This document shows positions 16,965 through 47,380 of a stretch of DNA of 64,000 nt, in pieces. The notes under the pieces are model-generated. The model had not been told where the DNA came from and did not search any database. It saw only the letters and a list, made by a program, of their open reading frames with translations. Source of the stretch: Candidatus Bathyarchaeia archaeon (lineage in GTDB: Archaea > Thermoproteota > Bathyarchaeia > 40CM-2-53-6); assembly GCA_049517415.1 (NCBI GenBank), contig JBEKSC010000003.1, positions 1-64,000 on the forward strand, written 5' to 3'. Made by a program: the position numbers and the translations under genes. How positions within the stretch are numbered: the stretch's first letter is position 1; each line of letters begins with the position of its first letter.

Positions 16965-18005
16965 TTGAGGTATTATGTGGAACTAGGCAAAGCTGCAGAT
17001 ACTTTGGTAAATTATGTAATGAAGGTGAAGAAGGGAGAAGACGTTCTCGTATGCGGGGATAGCGCAAATGACGAAGCTGTGTTAAAGGCAACAGCTGCCG
17101 CTGCGTATGCTGCTGGAGCTACTCCGACCATTGTTGTCACTGAGACTCGGGAGCGAGCATTTGCTGAGCCTCCTAAACCATTGGCAGCAGCGATGATGGA
17201 TGCTGATGTCCTGATTGAATTTACGACCAAAGCTATCTTGTACACAAAGGCTCAAGTAAACGCCTTGAAACGAAACCGAGCTTACATCTGCTTAACATCT
17301 CTGGACAGCGAGGCGATGGTGAGGACTCTCGGTTGGGTGAACTACCCGAAAATGGTGGAATTGGGAGAAAGATTAGCAGAACTGACAACGAAGGCAAAAG
17401 AGTTCAGGGTAACTAGCCCGTCAGGAACAGATTTCACCGGCAAGATTGGGGGAAGAAAGTGGGAGAACTACGGCGGGACCGCAGAGAAGAGACAAATCAT
17501 AATGCTGGGAGGACAAACGGGCGGAACATGCCTTGAAGAAACCGAAAATGGCGTGCTGGCTTTCGACGGCAATATTTGGCCTCCGGATGAAATAAAGAGC
17601 AACATACGAACTCCAATCAAGTTCAAAGTTGAGAAAGGCGTCATCAAAGAGATTACGGGTGGCACAGAGGCGGAGATGCTTAAGAAATATCTGGCAGGCT
17701 TCAACGATCCCAACATGTATAGGCTCGCTCATTTCTGCTACGGTTACCACCCTAATGCGCGGCAGACAGCTGACATATCGGAAGTGGAACGAGTTTGGGG
17801 GTGCTTCCAAGTCGGTTTTGGAAGGCAAGGCCCGCTGCTCCGACCGGATCTTGGAGGGGGATTTGGATGGGATGCAGCTTCCCACGACGACGGCATCATA
17901 CTGAAAGCTTCAATTTACCTTGACGGTGAACCTGTACAACAGAACGGAAAATTTGTTCACCCAGAGTTGGTGAAGATCCTCAAAGAGTGGGGAATAGAGC
18001 AATAG
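16965..18005 (+). CDS. M29-fold metalloenzyme, NicX-like (His...His-x-Asp) subtype
   Basis: GQ...LAHFCYGYHP...EVER...ASHDDG; overall aminopeptidase T/NicX architecture. Confidence 0.75.
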   Translation: MRYYVELGKAADTLVNYVMKVKKGEDVLVCGDSANDEAVLKATAAAAYAAGATPTIVVTETRERAFAEPPKPLAAAMMDADVLIEFTTKAILYTKAQVNALKRNRAYICLTSLDSEAMVRTLGWVNYPKMVELGERLAELTTKAKEFRVTSPSGTDFTGKIGGRKWENYGGTAEKRQIIMLGGQTGGTCLEETENGVLAFDGNIWPPDEIKSNIRTPIKFKVEKGVIKEITGGTEAEMLKKYLAGFNDPNMYRLAHFCYGYHPNARQTADISEVERVWGCFQVGFGRQGPLLRPDLGGGFGWDAASHDDGIILKASIYLDGEPVQQNGKFVHPELVKILKEWGIEQ

Positions 18006-18365
18006 CTCCCTTCGGAATTTGTTGCCCTTTTTTTCCCTCTCTACCGTTTTTCCTTTCATGAACCTCCATAATCTTGATGATACCCGCTTTTCGCGTAGGA
18101 ATCGCGTGAACAAAACGACGGTCAAGTAGAGTCCTAAGAAGTTAAGTTAGTATTCTGCCATCATGGATCTGCCAAGGTCGTTCCCGTTAGGATCTGGCAA
18201 TCCATCACTTAGACAGAGCTAAGATGCCCGTATATACTGATTCCGCACGATTAATCAATCTTCTTGTAGCCGCGGCTAAGTCAGAAGCCATTGAAGCCAT
18301 GAGTCCTCAAGCTTCACCAGGTCTTCGGCTATTTTCAATGCGACTGAAATTGGATCGATTACAGC
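17999..18365 (+). repeat. ~360-bp direct repeat, copy 1 (copy 2 at 21936-22292)
   Basis: Long identical runs, e.g. ccatcacttagacagagctaagatgcccgtatatactgattccgcacgattaatc. Confidence 0.95.
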
Positions 18366-18475
18366 TACATCGAGTTTCTCTTGGAGTGTCTCAGCTGAGT
18401 TTAGCGAAGCTCCGCATCCAAGAACTAGAACATCAGTTCGTCCTTCTTCGATGACTTGTCCACCTTCCAATATTG
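18276..18475 (-). pseudogene. C-terminal fragment of an Asp/Glu/hydantoin racemase
   Basis: DVLVLGCGA...EKLDVAVIDP...ALKIAEDLVKL; N-terminal two-thirds absent. Confidence 0.8.
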
Positions 18476-18506
18476 TGCTCTCACCAGCTAGTCGAAGTCT
18501 CTCCTT

Positions 18507-18705
18507 ATTTCGACGGTGGCCTTTACAGGGATCGGGTCATGAGTTTTGCCCGTTCTATGCCCCAGTCGATGTACTCCATCACAGCGTTCAGTCCATACTT
18601 ATCACACATCTCAAGAATTCGTCTTGCGCCTACTCTTAGAGATGCGGCTTGGGCTTCCATGTCGCCCATCGTCATGTCGGGAGTTCTGACGTTTGATCTG
18701 ATGAG
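18507..18705 (-). pseudogene. Internal, deleted fragment of hydantoinase B (copy of 23259-23535)
   Basis: Near-identical DNA to 23259-23289 joined to 23368-23535, with ~80 bp missing. Confidence 0.9.
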
Positions 18706-18708
18706 AGT

Positions 18709-19755
18709 CTACGCCTTTCCGAGCTTCTTCGCTAGTTCAATGAGATCTTTGTGTATGACCTTTCCCTTATCCGTAATTTGTACGCCGTCAAGCCAGACCG
18801 ACGTGTTCAGGCAGATTCCGTCGGAGTGAGAGGCTGCTGAAATACCGTCCGGAGGCGCTAGCATCGGTCCCACGTAGCCGATTCCCCATTCCGTGCAACA
18901 CCATACCCGCTCGTCCTCAAGGATATTTCCGGTCAACTTAGCGCCTGGATTGAACCCATAGCAGGCATGGGCCATGCTGAACATATTCGGGTCGTTGAAG
19001 CTCCTCAGCCAAGCCTCATAGTCGAGAGCATCTTTGCCTCCTTCAACCTTGACGATCTTGCCCTTCTCCACATGCAGCTTGACAGGCTCTTTCACAAGCC
19101 CAATCGGGGGCACAATCGACCCGTCAAACGCGATGATTCCGTTTATCGTCTCAAACCTCGGCGACCACCCTATCTGACCCGCTAGCATGTGAGAACCCGG
19201 CGTGTCAGCGTACCCAACTTCGCTTATCATCGGTCTCTTGGGGTCATTGTCGAATTCCACGTTCGTGCCCGCTGGGGTCGTCAACTTCATGTGTTTGGCT
19301 CTCTTGGTCATGTCCGTGATTTTGTCTTGGAACGTCTTCAGGGTTGGATAGTCGATCCTTCCAAGACATCTCGTCATCATGTCGGTGCTCATGCCGACGA
19401 GACAAAGGTATCTGAGGTTCTTGTTTTCTTTTGTCGCTATCTCATATGGGGTTGAGTACAAAAGCCATTGATTGTTGAACTCAACCCACGCATCGGACTC
19501 CTTCAAAGCTGCGGTCAACGCTTTCACAGGCAACATGGGGTCGGCGGCTTTTCCCACGCCTAGCGGAGAAGCGACCCGCATTACGAGAGGCTTGGCTCCG
19601 ACAGCAAACGCAACTCTGGCCACGGCCTCGACGACTCGCATATCGGATTCGGTGTCTGCCGTTATGGCGAATGTTTCTCCTGGTTTCAGCTTGAATAGTT
19701 CTCTACAAAGAATATCGGCGGATTTTCCGATTTCGTACTCATAAAGTGTGGACAT
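18709..19755 (-). CDS. M29-fold metalloenzyme, NicX-like subtype (paralog of 44379-45425)
   Basis: HMLAGQ, MAHACYGFNP, LEDER, ASHSDG. Confidence 0.8.
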   Translation of the reverse strand: MSTLYEYEIGKSADILCRELFKLKPGETFAITADTESDMRVVEAVARVAFAVGAKPLVMRVASPLGVGKAADPMLPVKALTAALKESDAWVEFNNQWLLYSTPYEIATKENKNLRYLCLVGMSTDMMTRCLGRIDYPTLKTFQDKITDMTKRAKHMKLTTPAGTNVEFDNDPKRPMISEVGYADTPGSHMLAGQIGWSPRFETINGIIAFDGSIVPPIGLVKEPVKLHVEKGKIVKVEGGKDALDYEAWLRSFNDPNMFSMAHACYGFNPGAKLTGNILEDERVWCCTEWGIGYVGPMLAPPDGISAASHSDGICLNTSVWLDGVQITDKGKVIHKDLIELAKKLGKA

Positions 19756-20100
19756 TTCCCATCGAAGTTATAGCGAGCCCAACTGCTTATTTAAGAGTTC
19801 CCGGGTTGCCTGACGGTTGCGCTCTAACCGCTCAGCTCCGCGCCTTAACCTGGAGCAACTAAACAACGCAATGGTTCACTGAGGGAGGTCGCTCGCTTGT
19901 GGTTCCAGTAGGTCACAAGCCCCTCGTGAGCGGGACAGATCGAGTCCTCGCAGACCTACGCCTCGTGGATCGCGTCGACCTTGCCCCAGGTGGAGAGACC
20001 CCTGCCGTCTTCGAGAATGTGATGAGATCCGTTTCTGCCGCAGAAGAATGGAACTGTGCCCCGCTAGATAGGCCGCGGACCCGGGCATGCGATGACAGTC

Positions 20101-20568
20101 TGTTATCTGACACACATATTTATGACGAGAAAACAGCGTGTGCCGACATGGAGACGACAAGAGACGTTCTCAAGCTGAGACGGTCGTGCATCAGAAAACA
20201 TGGGGAGGAGGCGTCGGTTAGTGAAATCTGTACCGCCACCCAGATCTCGCGAAGAACCTTCTACAACTAGTGGAAACGCTACGAGAGCGGAGGCTACGCG
20301 AACCTCACAGACAAACCCAGAAAAACCAACACAACCCACAGCACCCCGCCCGAAGTCGCCGAACCCATAACACAACTACGGCGGGAGACCGACGACGCAG
20401 GGGAACGTTGAGCGATGGTTCCGAACCTACGACCTTGAACATGACAGGTTCCCCCCTCCACCGGAAATTCATCCACTACTACAATTACGAACGGCCACAC
20501 ATGACGTTAAATTATTCAACGCCAGCGGAAGTCTACTTTGGCAATGTGCTAAATCTCCTGTGATAACA
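20101..20568 (+). mobile_element. Internally deleted IS481-family element (non-autonomous remnant)
   Basis: Termini TGTTATC...GATAACA; HTH-like SVSEICTATQISRRTFYN*WKRY; C-terminal FIHYYNYERPHMTLNYSTPAEVY; DDE core missing. Confidence 0.8.
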
Positions 20569-20636
20569 CTGGCGTGCGATCACGTAGAAAGCTTAATTTC
20601 TCTATGCTTCGCGATATGAGTCTTGGAGGAGATGAT

Positions 20637-21677
20637 TTGATCGATAAGAGAAAAATAGAGAAAGGCACCGTGAATATGCTCAAAATCAATCTGGGACTCA
20701 AAGCCCGAGAAAAACTTCTAGTGGTTACGGACGCGCCGACGATTGAGGAATGGAAAAGCCATAGTAGCGAGAAACTTGCGGACGCCGTGCGTCGGTCGGT
20801 CCTTGCAAGAGAGGTAAGTGAGATAGCTGCCCAAGCGTTCCCACAATCTAGTGTTGAGTTCTTCGCGTACCCGTCAATAGGCAAACATGGAACTTACCCA
20901 GGGAACGAGGTCGAGGAAAGAATGAAAGCCGCGGACGTGGTGGTAGCAATGACAACGTACTCGCTTACTCACACGGACGCACGGGAGCATGCGACGCAAG
21001 CCGGAGCACGACTTGCCAGTATGCCAATGTTCCTAGCGGAGATGTTCTACCCTGGGGGTGCGATGGCCGCAGATTACAGGAAGATCGCAGGTGAAACGAA
21101 GAGGATCGCCGATCTAATCACGCAGGCGAATGAAGCCACTATCAAGTCGAGGGCCGGAACAGACTTTACCTTCAGCGTTGAGGGAAGAAAAGGGATGTCA
21201 GACTCGGGAATATTCACCGAGAAGGGAGCATGGGGCAACCTACCGTCGGGCGAAGCGTACTGTGCTCCATTGGAGGGAACTGGAAACGGCAAGGTTGTGG
21301 TACAGAAGGGCTGGTACCCAGACCTGAAGGAGAATATGATCATAAGCTTCAAGGACGGAAAAGTGACTAGCATTGAGGGCGGCGGCCAAGTAGGAGACAG
21401 GTTTAGAGAGCTCCTAGCCTTTGGCAAGGAAGAGGAACCCTATCTCTCGCGCAGAAATCACGCCGAGCTTGGTGTGGGCACTAACCCTAACGCCAAGCGA
21501 CCAGATAACGTCTTGGAAGCAGAGAAGATTAGAGGAACAGTTCACGTCGCGATAGGAGACAACTCTCACATGGGTGGATCCGTCAAAGCAGACCTGCACC
21601 AAGACTTCATAATACCCCTGCCGACGTTCTCGCTCGACAACCAAGTAGTCATGAGAAACGGAAGGTTGGTCATCTAA
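20637..21677 (+). CDS. M29-family aminopeptidase-like protein, canonical-ligand subtype (paralog of 43122-44162)
   Basis: NLPSGEAY, AELGVGTN, EAEKIRGTVHVAIG, HQD; GGAGGAG just upstream of TTG 20637. Confidence 0.85.
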   Translation: MIDKRKIEKGTVNMLKINLGLKAREKLLVVTDAPTIEEWKSHSSEKLADAVRRSVLAREVSEIAAQAFPQSSVEFFAYPSIGKHGTYPGNEVEERMKAADVVVAMTTYSLTHTDAREHATQAGARLASMPMFLAEMFYPGGAMAADYRKIAGETKRIADLITQANEATIKSRAGTDFTFSVEGRKGMSDSGIFTEKGAWGNLPSGEAYCAPLEGTGNGKVVVQKGWYPDLKENMIISFKDGKVTSIEGGGQVGDRFRELLAFGKEEEPYLSRRNHAELGVGTNPNAKRPDNVLEAEKIRGTVHVAIGDNSHMGGSVKADLHQDFIIPLPTFSLDNQVVMRNGRLVI

Positions 21678-21759
21678 GGTCCTCTGTCCACGAGTGCGTA
21701 GGAGAGTGCGTACGGGACGATGAAAAGTCTCGAGACAGCTTGAGGCGGAGGCGATGTTG

Positions 21760-22060
21760 TATGAAACTGTTTAGGAATCAGCCTAACCCGATGCTGCCCT
21801 GTCTTACCGTTAACAATCAACACTGAGCAGTTGTTGTCGAATTTGTTCCTTATCTTAAGGCTGAGGATCTCGCCGATTCTGCATCCGCTCTCGTAGAGGA
21901 CGCTGATCAGAGCCTTGTCTCTGGGATTCTCAGCTGCAATAGCTCCTTCGGGATTTGTTGCCTCCTTTCCCCTCTCTACCGTTTTTCCTTTCATGAACCT
22001 CCATAATCTTGATGATCCCCGCTTTTCGCGTAGGAATCGCGTGAACACATCAACCGTCAA
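21760..22060 (-). pseudogene. Tyrosine recombinase/integrase (XerA-like) fragment
   Basis: PRDKALISVLYESGCRIGEILSLKI (box I Arg) and NGKTG; no HxxR or Tyr box. Confidence 0.85.
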
Positions 22061-22292
22061 GTAGAGTCATAAGAAGTTAGTACTCTGCAATCCTAGATCT
22101 GCCAAGGTCGTTTCCGTTAGGGTCTGGCAACCCATCACTTAGACAGAGCTAAGATGCCCGTATATACTGATTCCGCACGATTAATCGATCTTCTTGTAGC
22201 CGCCGCTAAATCAGAAGCCATTGAAGCCATTCTTCAAGCTTCACCAAGTCTTCGGCTATTTTCAATGCGACTGAAATTGGATCGATTACAGC
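21936..22292 (+). repeat. ~360-bp direct repeat, copy 2
   Basis: Matches 17999-18365. Confidence 0.95.
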
Positions 22293-24040
22293 GTGTTCTT
22301 GCGCTCGGCTTTCAGCCGTTTTCTAAGGTTAGACGTGGCCGCTATGTCTGGTTCCAGCGAACCCTGCTCGAACACAAATCCGTATATCTTCTCGGCATCT
22401 TGCCGTGAGATGTACTCGTTTCTCACGTCCCATGCCACTCTCTTGACGTCCCTGTCGAGGGGATCGCCGTATCCTCCCCCACCGCCCGTCTTGAGTCTGA
22501 TCAGCTCTCCTTTTTTCATCGATGCAGCGGCCACCTTTCTCATCCTTTGCGGCTCCTTTCCGCTTCTCATTAGAACGAAGTAGTTAGGTGTGCCTTTCAT
22601 ACCGCCTTCCATTCCCCATGCCGGATAGACGGATCTGCCGAAGGAAGCTGTGAATGACGCTTCGGAATTGTTTATTCTGTAATCCTTCACTAGACCGAAG
22701 CCACCCCTGAACATTCCATGGCCGCAGCCGTCTTCTACGTTTAGCGAGTATTGTTCAACCCTTATGGGTTGTCTAACCTCAAGAACTTCGTTCGACATTA
22801 TGAAGGTCTCGCCGTCTCCGCCACATACCAATCCACTCTCGCCATCTTTGTTCACGCCTCCTCCCCACCCGCCTGCCTGGGGCTCCACGACGGCGAAAGG
22901 CTGTTTCGTTTTGTCGTCGACGCCTCCCACGATTGTCGCGCACACGCTGAGAAAGTGTCCCGCTGGTAGCTTGTCTGGCATATGCGGTGCTAGAGCTTGC
23001 CAGACAATGTCTGTGACGAACATCATAGCCTCCCAATATGTGGAGGTTGGGGCTGGATATCGTGGATTGAATATGCTTCCCTCCGGAGCGACCAAACGAA
23101 GCGCGTCGAATTCGCCGTCATTTGCGGGAGATTGGGGACCCGTCACAGCCTTCATTATGAGTCTAGCAGCCGACACGGTCGCAGGGTATGGAGAGTTGAC
23201 CGAACCTCGAACTTGGGCTCCGGAGCCCGTTAGATCTATGGCGAACTTGTCGTCTGAGATTTCGACGGTGGCCTTTACAGGGATCGGGGTGTCTGTTATC
23301 CCATCATCATCGATCGTGTCTTCGACCGTGAACTTCCCGTGCGGAAGCTCTTTCAGTTTCTTCTGGATCATGAGCTTCGCCCGCTCTATGCCCCAGTCAA
23401 TGTACTCCATCACAGCGTTCAGTCCATACTTATCACACAACTCAAGAATTCGTCTTGCGCCTACTCTCAGAGATGCGGCCTGGGCTTCCATGTCACCCAT
23501 CGTCATGTCGGGAGTTCTGACGTTTGATCTGATAAGATCAAACAGATCCTCGTTTGGCTTGCCCTTGCGGAAGAGCTTGACTATTGGAAACTGCAGTCCC
23601 TCCTGATAGATCTCTGTGGCGTCGGATGTCCAACTCCCGAAGTGCATTCCACCTACCTCAGACCAGTGGCCCTTGTTGGTTGAGAACGCCAGAAGCTTAC
23701 CTCTGTAGAAAACTGGCATGACCAGCGTGACATCGTTCAGGTGTGTCCCGTGGTAGTGTGGAATGTTCATTGCGATTATGTCGCCTTCATCAAACCCATC
23801 TGCTCCGAATTTTTTCAGCGCGTCCTTCACTGCGATGTCTAAAACGCCAAGAAAACCGGGCGCTCCATTCGCTTGGGCAATCATCCTTCCCCTGTAATCC
23901 ATGATTCCACAGGCGTAGTCTAAGACTTCGTAGATGACTGGGCTCTTGCTGGTTCTGCCGAAGGCTGCGAAAGTTTCTTCCGCAGCCGAGACTAGGCTGC
24001 TGCCAATTATTTCGAGCGTGAACTTGTCGGTCTTCGTCAT
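22286..24040 (-). CDS. Hydantoinase B/5-oxoprolinase subunit
   Basis: SPVIYEVLDYACG, GTHLND, KGHWSEVGG, EIYQEG, TGGGGGYGDP. Confidence 0.92.
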   Translation of the reverse strand: MTKTDKFTLEIIGSSLVSAAEETFAAFGRTSKSPVIYEVLDYACGIMDYRGRMIAQANGAPGFLGVLDIAVKDALKKFGADGFDEGDIIAMNIPHYHGTHLNDVTLVMPVFYRGKLLAFSTNKGHWSEVGGMHFGSWTSDATEIYQEGLQFPIVKLFRKGKPNEDLFDLIRSNVRTPDMTMGDMEAQAASLRVGARRILELCDKYGLNAVMEYIDWGIERAKLMIQKKLKELPHGKFTVEDTIDDDGITDTPIPVKATVEISDDKFAIDLTGSGAQVRGSVNSPYPATVSAARLIMKAVTGPQSPANDGEFDALRLVAPEGSIFNPRYPAPTSTYWEAMMFVTDIVWQALAPHMPDKLPAGHFLSVCATIVGGVDDKTKQPFAVVEPQAGGWGGGVNKDGESGLVCGGDGETFIMSNEVLEVRQPIRVEQYSLNVEDGCGHGMFRGGFGLVKDYRINNSEASFTASFGRSVYPAWGMEGGMKGTPNYFVLMRSGKEPQRMRKVAAASMKKGELIRLKTGGGGGYGDPLDRDVKRVAWDVRNEYISRQDAEKIYGFVFEQGSLEPDIAATSNLRKRLKAERKNTL

Positions 24041-26104: not shown

Positions 26105-26212
26105 GTTTCCTCGAGTGGCAAGTCTGCGTGCCAAATACTATATTAAAGTAAGTATCGGTCAGACCGTTTCATTCTTACAAGTATTCCCACGAGTGGAATC
26201 GTGAATTAAGAA

Positions 26213-26536: not shown

Positions 26537-26544
26537 CCTGCCTC

Positions 26545-27065: not shown

Positions 27066-27107
27066 GCTTTGAGTTCCAACTCTCAGCTTTCCATAACGAT
27101 TATTGTG

Positions 27108-29931: not shown

Positions 29932-29942
29932 GGTCGTTTCGC

Positions 29943-30968: not shown

Positions 30969-31051
30969 CTCGGATTACCTCGACGGGGAACTATTTGCAG
31001 AGTCGAAAAGAAAAAGGGACGGAGGGCAGATCCTAGGATGTGCCCCCGTTT

Positions 31052-34097: not shown

Positions 34098-34111
34098 AGG
34101 GGCGTAAATGG

Positions 34112-38997: not shown

Positions 38998-39035
38998 GAC
39001 CCACGAGCAAGGACACAATTCCAACTAGCGTATCA

Positions 39036-39050
39036 TAAAAGAAAAAAGGA
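39036..39050 (-). terminator. Oligo-T archaeal terminator candidate
   Basis: T-rich tract on the minus strand just after the 31-aa ORF, between convergent genes. Confidence 0.4.
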
Positions 39051-39074
39051 AGGGAGACCCAGCGCTGTGGATGG

Positions 39075-39170
39075 CTACTTCTTCTTTCTATCACGGAACT
39101 CAAAGTAGGCTGCGATGACGAACACTACGACGATCACTACGATCGCGCCAGCAATCTGCCAAGTTTCCAT
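39075..39170 (-). CDS. 31-aa single-TM microprotein
   Basis: METWQIAGAIVVIVVVFVIAAYFEFRDRKKK*; starts 3 nt after the S-component stop. Confidence 0.7.
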   Translation of the reverse strand: METWQIAGAIVVIVVVFVIAAYFEFRDRKKK

Positions 39171-39173
39171 TTC

Positions 39174-39782
39174 TTACCACCAGATAACCGCCAAGGCCAC
39201 CGAAATCACGGCGAGAACTATAGCGATGTATTTGGTTGCTGGGAACTTCCAGTCGGGCCTGACGAACCTTGGAGTGGTCATAAGGACAATCCAGGGTATG
39301 AGGCCCCAGATCAGTAGATAGACCACATATGGTCCTGCGAACATGTTGTAGTAGAACATTGCTTGGACGGTCATTAGGTGGAAGACTGCAGCATATAGCC
39401 ACCACCAAGCGAAGTACTGCACGAAAAGTGCAACTGCCGTCGCTGCCCACCAGGCCACTGTTTTCGTGACTCTGCTCTTCATCGACCAGATTGCAGGATA
39501 GAGCGCAGCTATTAGAAAGATGTGTGGCCAGTAGCACCAAGCACCGACGAGACCGACTGCAGATGTCAGCGATTGCAGAATACTTGCTATCACGCCGCCG
39601 AGTGGGCCGGCGGCCATGGTTACAATTGTCATGAAGGTTCCGTTGAGCTCGAAGTTGACCATTGGAAGGTAACCTGGTAATGCCAAGCCTAAGCCGTTAC
39701 AGATCATACCGAGCGCAGCGAATATTGCTGTCACAGCGATTTGTCGCGGGGTCATTAGTAATTTTCTAGTCGTTTGGGTCAT
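39174..39782 (-). CDS. Probable ECF transporter S component
   Basis: ~200 aa with ~6 TM helices, IAVTAIFAAL (AxxxA) and GPLGG motifs; near the ECF A/T genes. Confidence 0.7.
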   Translation of the reverse strand: MTQTTRKLLMTPRQIAVTAIFAALGMICNGLGLALPGYLPMVNFELNGTFMTIVTMAAGPLGGVIASILQSLTSAVGLVGAWCYWPHIFLIAALYPAIWSMKSRVTKTVAWWAATAVALFVQYFAWWWLYAAVFHLMTVQAMFYYNMFAGPYVVYLLIWGLIPWIVLMTTPRFVRPDWKFPATKYIAIVLAVISVALAVIWW

Positions 39783-39984
39783 TAAGATCCCAAAATCGAG
39801 TTCGAAGTTCTACATATTTATGCTATGCGTATTTACCGTCCGTGTAGTACCTATTTCCGCTTGCAGATCCCTAAACCATGCTTCTACCTGTACCTGATCT
39901 TACTTTGAAAGAGGCAACCAAGGGTTGAGAAGCAAGCGTGCTAGTTTAGCGCCTCGGCTATATGTGAGCTTGCGCAGGCGACCC

Positions 39985-41211
39985 TTACCTGGCTGCTTCC
40001 AACGCTGTGACAAAGCCATCAATATCTTCAGCGCTGTTGAAGTAGTGTACGCATACCCTTGCCCACTTGTCTCTGTGGAAGGTCTTGAGAACGAGGGGAG
40101 AGGCGAAATTGCCAGCCTCGATGACTATCCCTTCTTTTGCCAGTTGACTTGAAATATTCTCTGATGCAACTTTGCTTTTATCGAAGGCTACGATTCCACC
40201 TCGAGTCGCGGATTCGGGGTCGCCGTACACCTCGATGCCATTTGCTTCCCGCAGTCTTTCAAGTAGGTAACTTGTAAGGTGCAGTATTCTGCTACGTATA
40301 TTGTCTATCCCACCGATTTCTTCAACGTAATCAAGAGCTCTATTCAGGGCAGCAACTGTCCCGAAGTTCAGTTCACCGGCCTCAAATCTCTCAGCAGTAC
40401 CGATATGCTTGTAACGACTGCGCGAAATCCATTTGGTTGTTGTCCAAGCGATATGTGAGGGCTCCATGCTACCCAGTAGCTCCTTTCTACAATAGAGGAT
40501 GCCCAGTCCCTGCGGCCCTCGAAGCCATTTCCTACATGGCGCCACCAAAAAGTCACAACCAAGATCTTTGACATCAACTCTAATCTGACCGATGGATTGG
40601 GATGCGTTGACGAGATAGAGCGCGTGGGTCTCTCGGATGAGTTTCCTAGCTTCTCTTAATGGCTGGAGGGTACCGAGCGAGTTTGAAATGTGCATCATAA
40701 CAACTAGTCGAGTCTTCTTGCTCAACGCGCGTTCTAGCGCCTGCAGGTTCACGTGACCGCTTCTACTTATGCCAATTACACGTACTCTGACGCCGAAATC
40801 TCGCTCAAGCCTTAGGAGGGGAACGAAGCCTGAAACGATTTCGAGAATGGACGTCACGACCTCGTCGCCCTTCTTCCACTTTATTCCGTTGATGACCTGC
40901 CCGATTGATTCTGAGCCGCCCTTAGTCAGTGCGACCTCGTTCGCCTGATCTGCGTTGATGAACTCGGCGACTTTTCTCTTCGTATCCTTGGTCGTCTCCG
41001 CTCCCTTCTCATAGAAGGCGGGGTTGACGAAACCGAGTTTGCCTACTTCATCCAGGTAATCTCTCGTTGCCTGTAGAACTGGAATGGGAGGCACTGAGCC
41101 TGCGGCGTGGTCGAGATAGATTACGCCGTTTGAGAAGGTGGCCGTATCCTTACGTGCTTTCGAGACATTGACGCTCACACCAAGCCCACCTGGCTCATTC
41201 TTCGTGGACAT
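39985..41211 (-). CDS. Class V PLP-dependent enzyme (desulfurase-like fold, no catalytic Cys)
   Basis: YLDHAA, HISNSLG, NASQSIGQ, CRKWLRGPQG, RVCVHYFN. Confidence 0.85.
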   Translation of the reverse strand: MSTKNEPGGLGVSVNVSKARKDTATFSNGVIYLDHAAGSVPPIPVLQATRDYLDEVGKLGFVNPAFYEKGAETTKDTKRKVAEFINADQANEVALTKGGSESIGQVINGIKWKKGDEVVTSILEIVSGFVPLLRLERDFGVRVRVIGISRSGHVNLQALERALSKKTRLVVMMHISNSLGTLQPLREARKLIRETHALYLVNASQSIGQIRVDVKDLGCDFLVAPCRKWLRGPQGLGILYCRKELLGSMEPSHIAWTTTKWISRSRYKHIGTAERFEAGELNFGTVAALNRALDYVEEIGGIDNIRSRILHLTSYLLERLREANGIEVYGDPESATRGGIVAFDKSKVASENISSQLAKEGIVIEAGNFASPLVLKTFHRDKWARVCVHYFNSAEDIDGFVTALEAAR

Positions 41212-41235
41212 CAGGTATGATGCTAGTTGCCTATC

Positions 41236-42906
41236 CTAACTGACTCCGTAGACCTTCTGAGCTTGCTCGGCGGTAATATACCCATTCAGTATGTCACGTT
41301 TCACCAGGGCATGGTCTCTGTCCCGGGGGTTACCCCAACCTCCCCCACCGCCGCTCCGAATACTTACTATGTCATTCTCCTTGAGCAGGAAGTTGGTGAT
41401 CCGGTTAACTCTCATCAACTCCTTCCCGTCCCGCAGTATCACTACGTAGTTTACTGTACCATCTCCTCCACCCATGGCTCCCCAAGGAGGAATTTTTCCC
41501 CTGTTGATCGAAGTCGTGAAGCTTGCATTATCGCATTGCATTCGGTAGTCCTTGATCATGCCGAACCCTCCTCGAAACTTTCCGTGTCCGCTACCATCTT
41601 CCACATTCAGCTTGAACCTGTCGACTACGAGCGGGTATCGTTTTTCTAGTACCTCGACTGGATTCGCAAACGTCTCGCCGTCCGCAAAAGAGACTAAGCA
41701 GCTTTCGCCGTCCTTGTCAGGGGCTGCACCCCATCCGCCAGGATTGGGTTCGACTAGTACGAAGTATTCTTTCGTTCTGGGGTCGATTCCAGCAATGATT
41801 TCTGCGCAGACTGAGAGAAAATGTCCGGCGGACAACTTATCCCCGATATGAGGCGCGAGAGCCTTCCAGACGAGATCAGCAGCCTGAGTCATCGTTTCCC
41901 AGTAGACTGATACGGGGGCTGGTCGCTTGGCGTTGAAGATCGTGTTCTCTGGAACAATTACCCTTAGTGGTTTCAGCAGCCCTTGATTGAAAGGCATGTG
42001 AGGATCGGTTATGGCCATATAGACGACCGCCACGGCTGCTAGGGTTGATGGATAGGTCGTGTTCAATGAAACCGGGAAGGCCTTGGGTGCGCCTGTAAAA
42101 TCTACTATGAATTCATTGTCCGTGATCGTGGTTGTCGCAAAGATTTTTAGTGGTTCCTTGCTCTCATAGCCTTCGTCCAAGTAGTCCTCGGCATAGAATT
42201 TGCCTTTCGGAAGCTCGGCTAGTCGGGCCATCGCCCTCTTTTCACCTTCAGCGAGAATGTTGCTCATCGCATCTCTGACTGATTCAACACCGTATTTGTG
42301 AATTAGTTCAGTTATCCTTCTCGTCCCAAGCCTAAGCGCTCCGGCAAGCGCTTCCAAATCTCCGTGAACAAAATCAGGGATTCTTGTATTCCCCAGAATC
42401 ATTCGGATTACGTCTCGGTTTGGTTTCCCCTTCTCGTAGTATTTCACAGGCGGTATGAAGAGGCCTTCTTGTAGGATTTCCTTATTGTCCGGGCCCCAGC
42501 TGCCCGGGTTCATCCCCCCTACATCATTCACGTGCCCCTTTGCGGTAGTGATCGCAATTATTTCTCCACGGTGGAAAATCGGTGAAGCCATTCCGATATC
42601 ATTCAGGTGCGTGCCTGTTATGTAGGGGTCATTGCAGACAATTATGTCGTCTGCGTAGAGTTTGTCATGTTTCTTGATTTCATCAACTGAATTCCTAGCG
42701 ATGGATTTCATGACACCTATCCAAAGAGGAAGGCCGATTGAAATTGCTAGAATGTCCCCCTCCTGATTCGTAATGGCAGTGGAGAAATCGAATGTTTCAT
42801 AGAAAATGGGGCTCTTTGACGTTCTAATCGCGAGCCAGAACATTTCATTTGCGATGCTATCGAAACCACTTTTTATGATCTCGATTGAGAAGGGATCCTT
42901 TCTCAC
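41236..42906 (-). CDS. Hydantoinase B/5-oxoprolinase subunit (second paralog)
   Basis: SPIFYETFDFS, GTHLND, KGHVNDVGG, SGGGGGWGNP. Confidence 0.92.
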   Translation of the reverse strand: MRKDPFSIEIIKSGFDSIANEMFWLAIRTSKSPIFYETFDFSTAITNQEGDILAISIGLPLWIGVMKSIARNSVDEIKKHDKLYADDIIVCNDPYITGTHLNDIGMASPIFHRGEIIAITTAKGHVNDVGGMNPGSWGPDNKEILQEGLFIPPVKYYEKGKPNRDVIRMILGNTRIPDFVHGDLEALAGALRLGTRRITELIHKYGVESVRDAMSNILAEGEKRAMARLAELPKGKFYAEDYLDEGYESKEPLKIFATTTITDNEFIVDFTGAPKAFPVSLNTTYPSTLAAVAVVYMAITDPHMPFNQGLLKPLRVIVPENTIFNAKRPAPVSVYWETMTQAADLVWKALAPHIGDKLSAGHFLSVCAEIIAGIDPRTKEYFVLVEPNPGGWGAAPDKDGESCLVSFADGETFANPVEVLEKRYPLVVDRFKLNVEDGSGHGKFRGGFGMIKDYRMQCDNASFTTSINRGKIPPWGAMGGGDGTVNYVVILRDGKELMRVNRITNFLLKENDIVSIRSGGGGGWGNPRDRDHALVKRDILNGYITAEQAQKVYGVS

Positions 42907-43121
42907 GGATCTGTTTCCCTCGTCTTTGTAAGAAGAGCGGTCGCCATTTATGCCTTTTCTAGATGTCGCGAATGTTTGCTCATTGAAAATCTCGCGGCGG
43001 ACGGGTCACACTTTACCTCCTCGTTCACAAGCGCCTAGACGGTTCGTCATGATTGCATGCAGCCAATGGCGCTCAGGAAGATTCGCTCAGCTCATTGCAG
43101 AGACAAGAGTGGAAAGCGGGA

Positions 43122-44162
43122 TTAGATCAGCAACCTGCCTCTTCTCATTATTGTCTTATCGTCTAGCGATAGCGTGGCAAGCGGCATTATGAAGTCTTGG
43201 TGCAGGTCTGTTTTGACGGATCCACCCATGTGAGAGTTGTCTCCTATCGCGACGTGAACTGTCCCTCGGATCTTTTCGGCTTCTAGAGTGTTGTCTGGCC
43301 GTTTCGCGTTCGGGTTAGTGCCGACCCCAAGCTCTGCATGATTTCTGCGTGAGAGATAGGGTTCCTCTTGCTTGCCGAATGACAATAGTTCTCTGTACCT
43401 GTCGCCCACTTGACCTCCACCGTCAACGCTGACGGCTTTCCCGTTCTTGAAGGTGAGTATCATGTTCTCCTTGAGATTAGGGAACCAATCCTTCTGAACG
43501 ACAACTCTACCGTTTGTTGTTCCTTCTACGGGAACACTGTATGCTTCGCCGGAGGGTAGGTTGCCCCATGCTCCCTTTTCGGTGAATATTCCCGTGTCTG
43601 ACATTCCCTTTCTATCCTTGAGACTGAAGGTAAGGTCTGTCCCCGCTTTGGTCTTGATTGTGGCCTCCTCAGCCTGTGTGATCAAGTCAGCTATCTTTTC
43701 CGTTTCTCGCGCGATCTTTCCATAATCTGCAGCCATCGGGCCTCCAGGGTAGAACATCTCAACCAGAAAATTCGGCATACTCGCTACCCGGGCTCCCGCA
43801 AGGTTTGCATGTTCCCGTGCGTCCGTGTGAGTAAGGGAGTAGGTAGTTATTGCTATCACCACATCAGCCGCTTTCATCTTCTCCTCGACCTCGGCCCCCG
43901 GGTAGGTGCCGGGTTTCCCAACTGATGGATACGCGAAAAATTCCACGCTTGATTTCGGGAAGGCCTGAGCACCTATCTCACTCACCATCTTAGCAAGGAT
44001 TGATCGGCGCACCGCTTCTGTAAGTTGCTCGCTGCCCTGGGTTCTCCATTCGTCTATGGTTCGAGCGTCCGTGACCACAAGAACTCGTTCTCCAGCTTTG
44101 AGTCCCATGTTCACTTTGAACATGTTCACAACGCCTTTCTCTATTTTCCTTCTCTCAATCAT
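43122..44162 (-). CDS. M29-family aminopeptidase-like protein, canonical-ligand subtype
   Basis: Highly similar to 20637-21677; same E/E/E/H/H/D-type motifs. Confidence 0.85.
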   Translation of the reverse strand: MIERRKIEKGVVNMFKVNMGLKAGERVLVVTDARTIDEWRTQGSEQLTEAVRRSILAKMVSEIGAQAFPKSSVEFFAYPSVGKPGTYPGAEVEEKMKAADVVIAITTYSLTHTDAREHANLAGARVASMPNFLVEMFYPGGPMAADYGKIARETEKIADLITQAEEATIKTKAGTDLTFSLKDRKGMSDTGIFTEKGAWGNLPSGEAYSVPVEGTTNGRVVVQKDWFPNLKENMILTFKNGKAVSVDGGGQVGDRYRELLSFGKQEEPYLSRRNHAELGVGTNPNAKRPDNTLEAEKIRGTVHVAIGDNSHMGGSVKTDLHQDFIMPLATLSLDDKTIMRRGRLLI

Positions 44163-44378
44163 ACCAGTCTTCCTCGGCACGGCGATACTACACCAGATAG
44201 GGAATAGGCTTTCTACATACACTGAATCTCAGACGCTTAAGTGCAAGCCTGCCCACTACGGCGACAAACCACGCTACCCACGAGCCCTTCGGCTATATAC
44301 TCGACAGTTCTAAATCGGGTTTCGTAAGTGTGCTAATTGTTAAATAGATAATTGAAGTCGCTATCACTGCGATAGATA

Positions 44379-45425
44379 ATGTCAGGATTCTATGAGTACG
44401 AGATCGGACGCTCAGCCGATATTTTATGTAGAGAGCTATTCAGGTTGAAACCAGGGGAAACACTTGCGATAACGGCAGACACCGAATCCGATATGCGGGT
44501 CGTCGAAGGAGTGGCCAGGGCGGCGTTTGCTGTTGGAGCCAAGCCTCTCGTGATGCGGGTCGCTTCTCCCTTGGGCGTGGGAAGAGCGGGTGATCCTATG
44601 CTACCTGTAAATGCTCTAGGAGCAGCCCTAAAGGAATCTGATGCATGGGTTGAATTCAACAACCAATGGCTTCTATACTCAACCCCCTACGAGATTGCAA
44701 TGAAGGGAAACAAGAATCTCAGACACCTTTGTCTTGTCGGCATGAGCCCCGACATGATGACTAGATGTCTCGGGAGAATTGACTACCCAACCCTGAAGGC
44801 GTACCAAGAGAAATTTGTAGACATGAACAAGAAGGGCAAGCACATCAAGCTCACAACGGAGGCCGGGACAAACGTTGAATTCGACATTGACCCCTCAAAG
44901 CCGTTCAGATGCCAGGTTGGCTACGCTGACACCCCGGGGTCCCATATGATGGCGGGTCAAATAGGATGGGCGCTAAGCTTTGAATCAATAAATGGAATCA
45001 TCGCATTCGATGGATCTATTGTCCCTCCGATTGGACTTGCAAGGGAACCCGTCAAACTACACGTGGAGAAAGGCAGGATCACGAGGATTGAAGGTGGCAA
45101 AGAAGCCCTTGAATATGAAAATTGGTTGAGAAGCTTCAATGACCCGAACATGTTCAGAATGGCCCACGTTTGTTACGGGTGCAATCCAGGTGCGAAGCTG
45201 ACAGGAAATATCCTCGAAGACGAACGAGTCTGGGGTTGCACTGAATGGGGAATCGGCTACGTAGGACCGCTGATAGCCCCTCCAGACGGTATTCCAGCCG
45301 CGTCTCACTCCGACGGCATCTGCCAAAACACTTCCATCTGGCTTGACGGCGTACAAGTCGCCGACAAAGGAAAGGTCGTGCACAAAGAGCTCATTGAACT
45401 AGCAAAGAAGCTCGGAAAGGCCTGA
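44379..45425 (+). CDS. M29-fold metalloenzyme, NicX-like subtype
   Basis: Highly similar to 18709-19755 (same 348-aa length). Confidence 0.8.
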   Translation: MSGFYEYEIGRSADILCRELFRLKPGETLAITADTESDMRVVEGVARAAFAVGAKPLVMRVASPLGVGRAGDPMLPVNALGAALKESDAWVEFNNQWLLYSTPYEIAMKGNKNLRHLCLVGMSPDMMTRCLGRIDYPTLKAYQEKFVDMNKKGKHIKLTTEAGTNVEFDIDPSKPFRCQVGYADTPGSHMMAGQIGWALSFESINGIIAFDGSIVPPIGLAREPVKLHVEKGRITRIEGGKEALEYENWLRSFNDPNMFRMAHVCYGCNPGAKLTGNILEDERVWGCTEWGIGYVGPLIAPPDGIPAASHSDGICQNTSIWLDGVQVADKGKVVHKELIELAKKLGKA

Positions 45426-45712
45426 ATCTTCATCGGGCAATCCTAGCCCTTTTTTCTCCCACGTTTTTCCTGTGCCGAACTACGATCGGTTCTTGGCTCG
45501 TTCTCGGCCGCCATGAGCTCACAAGGAATAAGATACACCTTCGACTTTAGGAGGACCAAACCGAGCACTGATTAAGTGCCCTTCGCGCTAAGAAATCAGG
45601 TCAGCTGCCAAGAAGAAAACTAAGTCAATGACAGTGGGGAAGTTACCGACGCCCCGTGCGTAGGGCAGAAGAGTACATATTCTACTGAAGCTACAGGAAA
45701 CGATGATCAAGT

Positions 45713-46459
45713 ATGCTTGTTGATGTTCACGCGCACCTTCATGGTGTCGAAGACATGGAAAGGACCCTGAGCGAAGCGTATCAGACTGGAGTCCGGAAGA
45801 TCATGGCTGTAAGCATGGACATGGAGTCGTACGAGAAGACCTGTGCGATCCAATCGGACCGAGTTAAGATCTATCCCGCGCTAGGTATTCACCCGTGGAG
45901 TGCGCCTTCACATCTGAATGAGCTTGAACAAGCATTACGTGAACTGAAGAACGTGCGGTACGTGGGTGAAATCGGCCTCGACCACGCATACTACAAGGAT
46001 CCTAAGGACCATGATGCCCAACTCAAAGTTTTCACGGCCTTCCTTGAAGCATGCAAGGGCACAGACAAGGTAGTCAACATTCATTCCGCAAGCGCAGAGG
46101 AGCAGATTCTCGAATTGCTCCAGACGTATGATGCGAAACACGTGAACATACACTGGTATGATGCTGCCGAACAAGGAACACCGCTAAAGCTCATTCCCAA
46201 AATGATCGACCTCGGATATTATGTTTCCATTACGCCTCTAGTGGCGACTTCCAAGACGGTGCAAGAACTTGCAAAAATGGTTCCGCTGGAGAACATACTC
46301 ACCGAAACGGACACTCACCCACTCGTGAAATATGACGGAGTCCAGTCAGCACCGAAGATGGTAAAGACATCTCTGGAAGGAATAGCCCGCGTAAAGAATT
46401 GCCCCATAAATGAAGTGGAGAACGCGGTGGCCCAGAACTTTGCACGCTTAGTGGGCTGA
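45713..46459 (+). CDS. TatD-family metal-dependent hydrolase
   Basis: DVHAH, GIHP, GEIGLD, ETD. Confidence 0.9.
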   Translation: MLVDVHAHLHGVEDMERTLSEAYQTGVRKIMAVSMDMESYEKTCAIQSDRVKIYPALGIHPWSAPSHLNELEQALRELKNVRYVGEIGLDHAYYKDPKDHDAQLKVFTAFLEACKGTDKVVNIHSASAEEQILELLQTYDAKHVNIHWYDAAEQGTPLKLIPKMIDLGYYVSITPLVATSKTVQELAKMVPLENILTETDTHPLVKYDGVQSAPKMVKTSLEGIARVKNCPINEVENAVAQNFARLVG

Positions 46460-46579
46460 CTTGCAAATAACACCTCGTTTGACGAGCCCTCTCTTCCATT
46501 GAGCTTCGAACGCGTGTCATGTTCTTTCGGCGAAATTGGAAATTGGACTCTACGAACTTGCTGAGGGGATAGCTCACTG

Positions 46580-47380
46580 CTACTGAGCGGTGTACCCTCC
46601 GTCCACCATTAGCACTGCTCCAGTAGTGAATGAAGCGTCGTCGGAGGCTAGGAACAAGACTGCCTTGGCAACTTCGTCCGGCTTGCCCAAACGATTCATT
46701 GGGTGCTTCTCAAGAAGCTGTTTCTTCAGGATCTTCGGATCGCCATAAGGCGTCATTAGGTGGTCATACCTGTCTGATGACACCCAGCTCGGCGGCGTGT
46801 CTATGGCTCCTGGTGCCACACAGTTCACTCGAATCTTATCCTTCACGTGATCGATCGCCAAGCATCGTGTGAGTTGAAGTGTCCCACCTCGGGAAGTGGC
46901 GTACGCTATGCAGGGAGGAAAGCCCGCGGCGAAACTATCAATAGAGCCTATGTTTACGATGGCGCCGCCCCCTGCTTTTTTCATTTCGGGGATAGCGTAC
47001 TTGGAGCAGAGGAAGGGCCCCCTTAAGTTGACGGCCATATGTCGGTCCCAATCCTCCTCGGTAACTTTGAGGACATTGCCAACAGATCCGATACCTGCGT
47101 TATTGAATAGTATGTCCAGTCTCCCAAATTTCTTAATTGTTTCCTGAACCATCCTCTGAACGTCTGCAGCAATTGATACATCGCCATGAACGTTTAATGC
47201 TTCGCCCCCAGCTTGCTCGATCAATCGAACGGTTTCTTCTCCGCTCTCCTTAACCACATCAAATACGACGACCTTGGCGCCCTCCTTGGAAAATAGTAGG
47301 GCAGTAGCTCGACCAATCCCGGATCCCGCTCCGGTGACTATGGCCACTTTTCCTTCGAGTTTCATAAGAATCAACGCCAC
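46580..47380 (-). CDS. Short-chain dehydrogenase/reductase
   Basis: TGAGSGIG, NNAG, YATSR (YxxxK with K>R), VDGG. Confidence 0.92.
   Translation of the reverse strand: MALILMKLEGKVAIVTGAGSGIGRATALLFSKEGAKVVVFDVVKESGEETVRLIEQAGGEALNVHGDVSIAADVQRMVQETIKKFGRLDILFNNAGIGSVGNVLKVTEEDWDRHMAVNLRGPFLCSKYAIPEMKKAGGGAIVNIGSIDSFAAGFPPCIAYATSRGGTLQLTRCLAIDHVKDKIRVNCVAPGAIDTPPSWVSSDRYDHLMTPYGDPKILKKQLLEKHPMNRLGKPDEVAKAVLFLASDDASFTTGAVLMVDGGYTAQ

Follow-up and report, generated by a model that had tools for sequence, protein, structure and literature searches.

The region at positions 16965–47380 (about 30.4 kb) of contig C3 of a Candidatus Bathyarchaeia archaeon genome is a rearranged mosaic of two separately conserved gene modules and not a single co-conserved pathway. 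In the first module a pair of metalloenzymes, one of NicX type and one of M29-peptidase type, travels with a Dpp ATP-binding cassette (ABC) importer and a PF01177 racemase. In the second, an ATP-dependent HyuA/HyuB enzyme travels with a prolidase and with either the same DppA subfamily or an energy-coupling factor (ECF) importer that has its own candidate S component. In this genome the modules have been brought together, duplicated and partly decayed. The window analysed is contig positions 1–64000 (64,000 nucleotides) of a 2.65-Mb bin in 59 contigs, with estimated completeness of 100% and contamination of 6.86%; its open reading frames (ORFs) were listed and scanned with Pfam and NCBIfam. 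These scans bear out the gene content given in the initial annotation, every item of which lies where it had been placed. The initial annotation had also taken the 30 kb for one catabolic region, and here the comparison turns out otherwise: the whole set is not kept together in 79 loci selected for relatives of gene B or in 20 selected for relatives of HyuB2. Co-occurrence, the check proposed there, is negative for the whole 30 kb and positive for two smaller sets, the NicX-like pair with Dpp and racemase, and HyuAB with prolidase and Dpp/racemase (or HyuAB with ECF).

The genes of the first module in the region are listed below (aa, amino acids; pLDDT, predicted local distance difference test; TM, template-modelling score).

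16965–18005 (+), A, NicX/M29-fold paralogue of the B type, 346 aa; Pfam M29 25.4 bits; keeps the NicX-aligned His/His/Asp
18709–19755 (−), B, NicX-type paralogue, 348 aa; no Pfam match; model pLDDT 95.1; best fold match NicX (7cn3), TM 0.76
20574–21677 (+), C, M29-type paralogue, 367 aa; Pfam M29 28.5 bits; keeps the M29-aligned Glu/Glu/His/His/Asp
43122–44222 (−), D, M29-type paralogue, 366 aa; Pfam M29 36.8 bits; model pLDDT 89.9
44379–45425 (+), E, NicX-type paralogue, 348 aa; no Pfam match; aligns with the other four
27108–32701 (−), dppFDCBA (dppA at 31052–32701), ABC importer of the peptide type whose binding protein belongs to family 5 (Pfam, NCBIfam)

Relatives of B at 57–76% identity were found at 79 loci when one genome per species was scanned, and neighbours were counted within 10 kb of each relative. 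ORFs in these loci (1,968–21,056 bases long) were called by a crude longest-ORF rule and named by BLAST against the window proteins, or by Pfam/NCBIfam for recurrent unknowns. Since many loci stop at contig ends, the counts are lower bounds. At least four of the five dpp genes accompany the B relative in 42 of the 79 loci; for comparison, this 2.65-Mb genome holds six genes for family-5 binding proteins (SBP_bac_5). A C/D-type paralogue is present in 29 loci and directly adjoins the B-type gene in 22 of them, and a PF01177 racemase is present in 28. Further recurrent neighbours are a nitroreductase with DUF6092 (PF00881+PF19585; 23/79), a DUF917 protein (S-Me-THD-like; 15/79), a PepT-like M20 peptidase (11/79), the glycyl-radical enzyme HypD with its activase (10/79; 1110 bits against an equivalog cut-off of 1100) and a PucR regulator (8/79). 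The remaining genes of the region are rare companions: HyuA or HyuB in three loci, the pyridoxal phosphate (PLP) enzyme in three, ECF in two, M24 in one, and TatD, the short-chain dehydrogenase/reductase (SDR) and the cupin in none.

The holders of B relatives include Bathyarchaeia, Candidatus Terraquivivens, Desulfurococcales, Thermoplasmata, Heimdallarchaeota, Atribacterota, Thermotogae, Aerophobetes, Coprothermobacterota, Clostridia, Desulfotomaculum and others; such high identity across two domains points to horizontal transfer. B-type proteins form a small family: a search with B of 1.84 billion cluster representatives gave 117 proteins at an expectation value (E) of 1e-30 or better and 778 at 1e-10 or better. 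A regular operon recurs in seven of the loci (L042, L044, L064, L070, L074, L086 and L088; Aerophobetes, Coprothermobacterota, Thermotogae, Caldisericota and Bipolaricaulota bins), in the order B-type gene (often twice), PepT-like M20, nitroreductase, DUF6092, dppABCDF, racemase.

Sister clusters lie on contigs C21, C16 and C14 of the same genome. They contain Dpp genes, racemases, AstE/AspA-like deacylases and nitroreductase–DUF6092 fusions, with the PF00881+PF19585 pair present on C16 and C14 and a third HyuAB pair on C21. The latter contig also carries a thermosome gene, which, with the XerA-like recombinase fragment and the AcnX and UbiX genes described below, supports the archaeal origin of the window. 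The genome has nine intact PF01177 racemases. Together with the two racemase relics described below, and with 13 NicX/M29-fold matches, they are unusual expansions for 2.65 Mb. The PF01177 racemases that were scanned reached no NCBIfam model at 1e-10, which leaves hydantoin racemase, Asp/Glu racemase and maleate isomerase indistinguishable. A naive Poisson estimate for five M29-fold genes within 30.4 kb is P of about 5e-7, a value that overstates the clustering because locally duplicated paralogues are not independent. Another M29-fold gene, on contig C13 (L029:8901–13107), heads a unit that parallels M24-ecfAA-ecfT of the window: after it come a second fused ATPase of the ECF type, a T component and a 190-aa protein that has no match in Pfam.

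All five paralogues A–E align with one another (protein identity 83% for B/E, 78% for C/D and 38% for A/B), and two kinds of metal site can be distinguished among them. Against the Pfam M29 family (PF02073, gathering cut-off 27 bits), C and D score above the cut-off, A scores below it, and B and E have no match. The sole solved relative found by sequence is NicX (PDB 7cn3), with E values of 3e-12 for A and 2e-10 for C. AlphaFold models of B and D, built from alignments of 44 and 27 rows, respectively, matched in order NicX (TM 0.70–0.77), the aminopeptidases PepS/AmpT/AmpS (TM 0.55–0.70) and CgnB/CgnE (TM 0.47–0.59). NicX His265, His318 and Asp320, which we take to be its Fe(II) triad, align with H263, H310 and D312 of B; these are invariant in all 44 B-type sequences, and the equivalents are kept in A and E. 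The C/D type has Glu in place of NicX His265, and its invariant residues are E226, E297, H323, H341 and D343, with the GEAY and HxD motifs aligning with EEVF and HVD of PepS.

The catalytic motif of M29 enzymes is EEHYHD (PMC7023490). No counterpart of the motif Tyr was identified in the C/D type. A, B and E depart from the motif, the alignments pointing to Gln, His and Glu at its first three positions. Because C/D keep the M29 ligand set while the B type keeps the NicX triad, the pair looks like one partner with a two-metal peptidase site and one with a one-metal NicX-type site. Prediction of a B–D complex reached a score of 0.01, where 0.32 is the mark, and speaks neither for nor against binding.

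The second module is represented in the region by two HyuAB pairs, a prolidase and the ECF importer.

22286–24040 (−), HyuB1, B subunit of an ATP-dependent cyclic-amide hydrolase; Pfam 562 bits
24041–26134 (−), HyuA1, ATPase subunit, with zero gap to HyuB1 (Pfam, NCBIfam)
32856–34097 (+), M24B prolidase-type Xaa-Pro dipeptidase; 28-nucleotide overlap with the start of the ECF ATPase gene; Pfam 230.7 bits
34070–35830 (+), fused double ECF ATPase (A-A'); NCBIfam ECF_ATPase_2 475.8 bits, cut-off 330
35831–36724 (+), ECF T component; Pfam CbiQ 87.9 bits, below the TIGR02454 cut-off
36829–38997 (+), HyuA2 (Pfam, NCBIfam)
39174–39782 (−), candidate ECF S component, a 202-aa polytopic membrane protein by hydropathy, with homologues in loci L140 and L159
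41236–42906 (−), HyuB2; Pfam 534 bits

Relatives of HyuB2 (47–54% identity) occur in about 20 of 300 sampled genomes of the phylum. In 22 other searched genomes of the genus no HyuB exceeds 36% identity to HyuB1, and for this reason the HyuB subfamily looks acquired. Among 20 neighbourhoods of HyuB2 relatives, drawn from 10 genera with seven from one genus, 13 have all the dpp genes, 12 have a PF01177 racemase, as a rule placed between dppA and dppB, and 12 have M24; the ECF ATPase, T component and 202-aa homologue occur together in two, and HypD in one. NicX-like genes, TatD, SDR and the PLP enzyme were each found in 0/20. Three loci illustrate the order of these genes. The hyuA-hyuB genes of L151 lead directly into dppBCDF through stop and start codons that overlap. 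In L142 a single strand carries dppABCDF-racemase-hyuA-hyuB-HypD-activase (HypD 1108 bits, cut-off 1100). L140 has ecfT, ecfAA, S, HyuB2, HyuA2, cupin, HyuB1, HyuA1 and M24, which is the set found in the window in a tidier order. In the window itself overlaps or zero gaps join M24-ecfAA-ecfT, hyuA1-hyuB1 and dppBCDF.

HyuAB enzymes use ATP to open stable cyclic amides. Both subunits in the window are full-length by Pfam: the two HyuA proteins score 320 and 267 bits for Hydantoinase_A, with its N and C domains, and HyuB1 and HyuB2 match Hydantoinase_B throughout. They do not reach the caprolactamase CapA/CapB equivalogs, for which the cut-off is 1000 bits (alpha 523.5 and 495.7; beta 272 for HyuB1 and 277). 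Among solved structures HyuB2 comes closest to N-methylhydantoinase (7hk5, E 5e-86), and it matches caprolactamase too (6yra, deposited as 'Hydantoinase'; 2.5e-65). Two of the three full HyuB genes in the genome lie in this region. HyuA2 is 42% identical to HyuA1 and 62% to the copy on contig C21, and HyuB2 is 46% identical to HyuB1.

The M24 protein is most like the Pyrococcus prolidases 1wy2 (E 5e-70) and 1pv9 (E 3e-69). It matches both Pfam M24 (230.7 bits) and Creatinase_N (59.7 bits), and its segments DvGa..gDltRt, GHglG, EPGiY and RiED align with 1wy2, bringing into register the residues D, D, H, E and E, presumably the metal ligands. It scores 262.9 of the 630 bits required for the archaeal PepQ equivalog. 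Prolidase is specific for Xaa-Pro and Xaa-Hyp (hydroxyproline) dipeptides. The 202-aa protein is read as a candidate ECF S component. In L140 and L159, homologues 51–52% identical to it are encoded between HyuB2 and the ECF ATPase; its Atlas look-alikes are ECF S components with scores of 0.87–0.89, all below 0.9 and hence leads only; it has no Pfam match even at E 0.05.

What links the two modules most directly is the binding protein. In a maximum-likelihood tree of 60 DppA sequences, obtained by a quick search, rooted at the midpoint and containing several long branches, the DppA of the window falls in a clade of 17 (SH-aLRT, the Shimodaira–Hasegawa-like approximate likelihood-ratio test, 97) that contains 11 HyuAB-linked and five NicX-like-linked DppAs. 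At about 31% identity, the DppAs encoded in the C21 and C16 sister clusters are distant from it. This common clade is the best evidence that the two enzyme sets would act on the same class of imported compound. That one binding-protein subfamily appears to serve two unrelated enzyme sets stands even if the substrate is a different one from that proposed below. The solved relatives of DppA are generic binders of peptides, nickel, haem and murein (E 2e-31 or weaker) and give no clue to the ligand.

The mosaic character of the region is apparent from its relics and repeats, two of which correspond to the racemase remnants reported in the initial annotation and are real.

17999–18365, direct repeat copy 1, 367 nucleotides, 91% identical to copy 2 (self-BLAST)
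21936–22292, direct repeat copy 2, which with copy 1 brackets the B–C cassette (self-BLAST)
18306–18467 (−), C-terminal relic of a PF01177 racemase; 57–61% identity by blastx to racemases from related loci; its Pfam match (E 2e-4) does not reach the cut-off
18534–18706 (−), partial copy of HyuB1, 173 nucleotides, residues 169–226; 95% aa identity, and 94% nucleotide identity to 23365–23537; Pfam Hydantoinase_B match with internal stops
19899–20563 (+), probable decayed transposase (weak signal), a helix–turn–helix piece and an rve C-terminal piece; rve_3 E 8e-5 and HTH_29 E 6e-4, both below cut-off
21674–22060 (−), fragment of a tyrosine recombinase (XerA-like), 128 aa; profile positions 19–69 of 172
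26548–27057 (−), PF01177 racemase pseudogene directly after dppF, a whole gene spread over three frames by frameshifts and internally deleted by about 60 codons; contigs of four runs have the same sequence

The presence of these relics and repeats argues for recent shuffling. Duplication has occurred at different times: B/E and C/D, with DNA identities of about 80% and 78%, are younger duplicates than HyuA1/A2 and HyuB1/B2 (42% and 46%), which are old paralogues. An 82-nucleotide tract near the 3' ends of C and D (21532–21613 and 43186–43267) is 97.6% identical, compared with 78% over the rest of the two genes, which suggests local gene conversion. B(−)/C(+) and D(−)/E(+) form the same head-to-head unit in opposite orientation, and in other genomes the pair is usually co-directional. 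HyuA2 and HyuB2, adjacent in L140 and L159, are convergent here, with the S gene and the PLP gene between them; an inversion would explain this order. No tRNA gene was found in the window, which leaves integration at a tRNA site unsupported.

The odd gene arrangement is not an assembly artefact. Contigs of four public peat/wetland metagenome runs show no differing letters over 16900–27200, save at one paralogue-derived site, and this agreement indicates that the arrangement is real and the assembly sound. A single 19.7-kb metagenome contig covers 23504 to about 43241, and 36829–45425 is present in full in 20 peat/wetland runs, among which no RNA run is listed. The matching runs may include the source sample.

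It is tempting to assign a substrate to these modules. Our tentative proposal, which we would place a little short of an even chance, is that they take up and degrade cyclic dipeptides (diketopiperazines) containing Pro or Hyp, or similarly peptidase-resistant dipeptides. The substrate would enter through Dpp or the ECF importer, and the racemase would set the stereocentre; PF01177 enzymes invert stereocentres beside carbonyls. HyuAB would then open the ring with ATP to give a linear Xaa-Pro or Xaa-Hyp dipeptide, which might be split by the prolidase or by the M29-type enzyme. The NicX-type partner would be a metal-dependent hydrolase or isomerase and not a dioxygenase. HypD and proline racemase (598 bits, cut-off 556) consume free Hyp and Pro. 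A cyclic dipeptide of this kind is proposed because it is the simplest substrate that would require HyuAB, prolidase, HypD/proline racemase, cyclodipeptide-oxidase homologues and PF01177 together. The cyclic, blocked or racemised peptides of the initial annotation thus gain indirect support, from the prolidase with its full ligand set, from HypD (10/79 and 1/20) and from the PF00881+PF19585 pair (23/79 and two sister clusters).

Published work gives this proposal some context. PF00881+PF19585 pairs are described as homologues of cyclodipeptide oxidase, an enzyme that acts on diketopiperazines, and in clusters of these homologues that lack a cyclodipeptide synthase (CDPS), PF01177, DUF917, dipeptide ABC transporters and peptidases are over-represented (PMC11055893). 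Diketopiperazines resist peptidases, and the enzymes that degrade them were described as unknown in 2013 (PMC3852281). Otzen et al. remarked that some 'oxoprolinase' genes, which are HyuAB homologues, may be cyclic dipeptide hydrolases (PMC6061476). Save for that 2018 remark, a search of the literature, as far as the texts were available, found no paper naming a gene for diketopiperazine hydrolysis, and a search on DUF6092 found nothing.

Several points weigh against the cyclic-dipeptide proposal. The modules rarely meet elsewhere (HyuAB in 3/79 loci, NicX-like genes in 0/20), nothing shows that they act jointly in one pathway, and each chemical step is conjectural. The PF00881/PF19585 pair is absent from 16965–47380 by Pfam, which leaves the 30 kb with no cyclodipeptide-oxidase homologue. 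Since both racemases in the region are dead, the route here may be in decay or lack a step; outside the region, at 59821–60567, there is an intact one. The DNA comes from peat or wetland and not from hot habitats, and heat-driven formation of diketopiperazines is therefore no argument in this case. Vitamin-sized molecules are the usual cargo of ECF importers, and a small lactam would suit one no less well than a dipeptide. Genes for haem-copper oxidase subunit I and cytochrome bd on other contigs make O2-dependent chemistry of the NicX type possible in this organism. The comparison itself has its own weaknesses: the related loci are not independent, as the derivation of seven of the 20 HyuB loci from one genus makes plain, ORF calling was crude, genes were named by BLAST against the window proteins, neighbours were lost at contig ends, and the DppA tree was a quick, midpoint-rooted one.

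The terminal oxidase genes, unexpected in a bin whose relatives would be taken for anaerobes, lie at C7:61968–63281 (haem-copper oxidase subunit I, 495 bits) and C5:71435–73682 (cytochrome bd oxidase), and with 6.86% contamination in the bin their ownership is uncertain. An argument that all holders of the NicX-like family are anaerobes, and that a dioxygenase is excluded on that ground, was set aside: it holds for the family at large and fails for this organism, which has these genes.

Four other explanations deserve consideration. The region might simply gather genes for ordinary peptide fermentation under a shared scavenging regulon, with Dpp importing normal dipeptides, the M24 and M29-fold enzymes acting as plain dipeptidases and aminopeptidases, and HyuAB serving as 5-oxoprolinase. 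Every family concerned includes generic enzymes; the two-gene archaeal homologues of HyuAB in Sulfolobaceae have been put forward as 5-oxoprolinases (PMC6507225); and the sole HyuBs of the genome are the three in these clusters, one of which may have to fill that role. Yet the HyuBs of the window are merely 30–36% identical to the common, shorter-type HyuB of the genus and phylum, and in L151 HyuAB appears, from the overlapping codons, to be co-transcribed with dpp permease genes, which would be unexpected for a housekeeping 5-oxoprolinase. The racemases, and the cyclodipeptide-oxidase homologues in the sister clusters, argue for unusual substrates, and NicX and Hpo are reported to be inactive on Leu-p-nitroanilide (PMC3831237). 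Ordinary peptide use is thus unlikely, though it deserves to be kept in mind. A use of hydantoins or ureides we regard as slightly less likely still. Here 5-substituted hydantoins, allantoin-like rings or N-carbamoyl amino acids would be imported, racemised and opened by HyuAB, with M29-fold, M20 or AstE-like enzymes removing the carbamoyl group. Such a route would suit the N-methylhydantoinase that is the top solved relative of HyuB2, the hydantoin and allantoin racemases included in PF01177, and the DUF917, PucR (8/79) and NCS1-type permease genes of related loci, and the 2024 paper prefers substrates resembling hydantoin or allantoin for such clusters (PMC11055893). It leaves the full-ligand prolidase and HypD with no role in hydantoin breakdown; the importer is of a peptide-binding family, and neither the racemases nor the M20 protein tested reached an NCBIfam model for hydantoin racemase or carbamoylase.

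The pyridine-like heterocycle that the initial annotation offered as an alternative is unsupported and very improbable. In such a pathway the NicX-like proteins would be ring-cleaving Fe(II) dioxygenases and the PF01177 protein would resemble maleate isomerase, as in aerobic nicotinate breakdown. NicX is indeed the closest solved relative by sequence and by fold, A, B and E retain its iron triad, terminal oxidase genes are present in the genome, and maleate isomerase belongs to the Asp/Glu racemase superfamily. But no further nicotinate- or pyridine-pathway family is present in the window, or as a recurrent neighbour in the 79 loci, and the constant partners of the NicX-type gene are a peptide-type importer and a paralogue with a peptidase-type site. 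Relatives at 60–76% identity are, moreover, common in Atribacterota, Thermotogae, Clostridia, Desulfotomaculum and Bathyarchaeia, lineages known as strict anaerobes. Tailoring of a secondary metabolite is more improbable still. The M29-fold proteins would then bind or modify peptides, as CgnB and CgnE do in crocagin biosynthesis, and the cluster would make a modified peptide; CgnB/CgnE are the third-best fold matches, and characterised cyclodipeptide oxidases are biosynthetic (PMC11055893). By Pfam the window has no CDPS, nonribosomal peptide synthetase (NRPS) or precursor system for ribosomally synthesised and post-translationally modified peptides (RiPPs), the constant partner is an importer with a binding protein, and a catabolic prolidase and HypD stand alongside.

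The remaining genes of the region belong less clearly to either module.

26213–26536 (+), small cupin, 107 aa (Pfam); a 37%-identical homologue lies between two HyuAB pairs in L140
39985–41211 (−), class-V PLP enzyme of the SufS lineage, without the desulfurase Cys (Pfam, NCBIfam)
45713–46459 (+), TatD-family hydrolase (Pfam)
46580–47380 (−), SDR oxidoreductase (Pfam)

The TatD, SDR and PLP genes are probably passengers, co-conserved with neither module: the PLP enzyme occurs in 3/79 and 0/20 loci, TatD and SDR in 0/79 and 0/20. An SDR gene is present in the C21 sister cluster as well. To call the PLP enzyme atypical, as had been done, is fair. In alignment with SufS it retains the Lys (CRK against SHK) and has Ala/Ser at what we take to be the position of the SufS catalytic Cys, where the aligned PDB chain itself has Ala and may be a mutant. 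For the SufS type it scores 254 of the 475 bits required.

Directly upstream of gene A, at 14419–16766, lie a UbiX-family flavin prenyltransferase and the large and small subunits of AcnX (15181–16766). AcnX adjoins B relatives in L061 and L097 too. Its sole NCBIfam match is cis-3-hydroxy-L-proline dehydratase, at 312.7 bits, below the cut-off of 700. A hydroxyproline link through AcnX was considered and set aside, since the neighbouring UbiX fits the archaeal mevalonate route better; AcnX and UbiX are presumably mevalonate (phosphomevalonate dehydratase) genes, and AcnX was for this reason kept out of the region. At 58402–60567 a PLP decarboxylase of the ornithine/diaminopimelate/arginine type adjoins the intact PF01177 racemase (59821–60567), and decarboxylases of the same family lie beside two more M29-fold clusters, on contigs C14 (L027:15382–16752) and C13 (L029:13348–14652). 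These decarboxylase neighbours hint at a link to D-amino acids or diamines. Two flanking genes, at 2972–7717 (1581 aa, with five Big_3_5 Ig-like repeats) and 8002–11556 (a 1184-aa ORF with no Pfam match), probably encode surface proteins.

Cyclic dipeptides are abundant as microbial signals, antibiotics and products of protein decay. If the cyclic-dipeptide proposal is true, a function could be given to hundreds of loci now labelled 'hydantoinase/oxoprolinase', 'aminopeptidase' or '2,5-dihydroxypyridine dioxygenase', it would be clear why anaerobes carry homologues of cyclodipeptide oxidase, and two HyuAB pairs, two kinds of M29-fold protein, one binding protein and one S component would become candidates for enzymology. 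A bolder form of it, possible but doubtful, is that HyuAB of this subfamily are the first ATP-driven diketopiperazine hydrolases and the NicX/M29-fold pair their ATP-independent counterpart, both fed by a DppA subfamily or an S component for cyclic Xaa-Pro/Xaa-Hyp, in a widespread and horizontally traded pathway of archaea and bacteria. Even if the substrate differs, the NicX-like annotations in these loci are likely to mislead, because the gene neighbours do not fit a pyridine dioxygenase.

Each enzyme set has well-studied relatives from which it departs. The HyuABs share with caprolactamase CapAB (6yra), N-methylhydantoinase (7hk5) and 5-oxoprolinase a two-subunit architecture and full-length matches to both Pfam families. 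In contrast to these, they are not caprolactamase equivalogs, and their genes accompany those for a peptide importer, a racemase and a prolidase, links not known for any characterised HyuA/HyuB member. NicX/Hpo, the 2,5-dihydroxypyridine 5,6-dioxygenase, is the top match of the M29-fold proteins in sequence and fold, and its triad equivalents are invariant in A, B and E, whereas identity is merely 18–20% and the partners and presumed anaerobic hosts discussed above differ. The aminopeptidases AmpS, AmpT and PepS have the same fold, and the Glu, Glu, His, His and Asp of C/D, two proteins just over the Pfam cut-off, align with their motif. The proteins of the window are about 50 residues shorter than these aminopeptidases, and the B/E/A type lacks the two Glu and one His. 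Neither NicX nor Hpo had leucine aminopeptidase activity, measured with Leu-p-nitroanilide (PMC3831237).

The nearest described systems are the cyclodipeptide-oxidase-like clusters without CDPS (Andreas & Giessen, Nat Commun 2024, PMC11055893), through which similar modules are partly in print since 2024. As far as the available portion of that paper extends, these clusters occur in archaea and bacteria, including anaerobes, and share with the loci described here PF01177, DUF917, dipeptide/oligopeptide ABC importers and peptidases; the PF00881+PF19585 pair is found in 23 of the 79 B-related loci and in the sister clusters on C16 and C14. The 30 kb of the window, unlike those clusters, has no PF00881/PF19585 gene. 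Neither the NicX/M29-fold pair nor HyuAB is given particular attention in that portion of the paper, and the substrates it leans towards resemble hydantoin or allantoin; the supplementary neighbourhood figure of the paper may already show M29-fold genes. What the present comparison adds is the recognition of two module types with a common DppA clade, their repeated links to prolidase and HypD, an M29-fold pair that combines one NicX-type with one M29-type site, and a genome in which the modules have been fused, duplicated and partly degraded.

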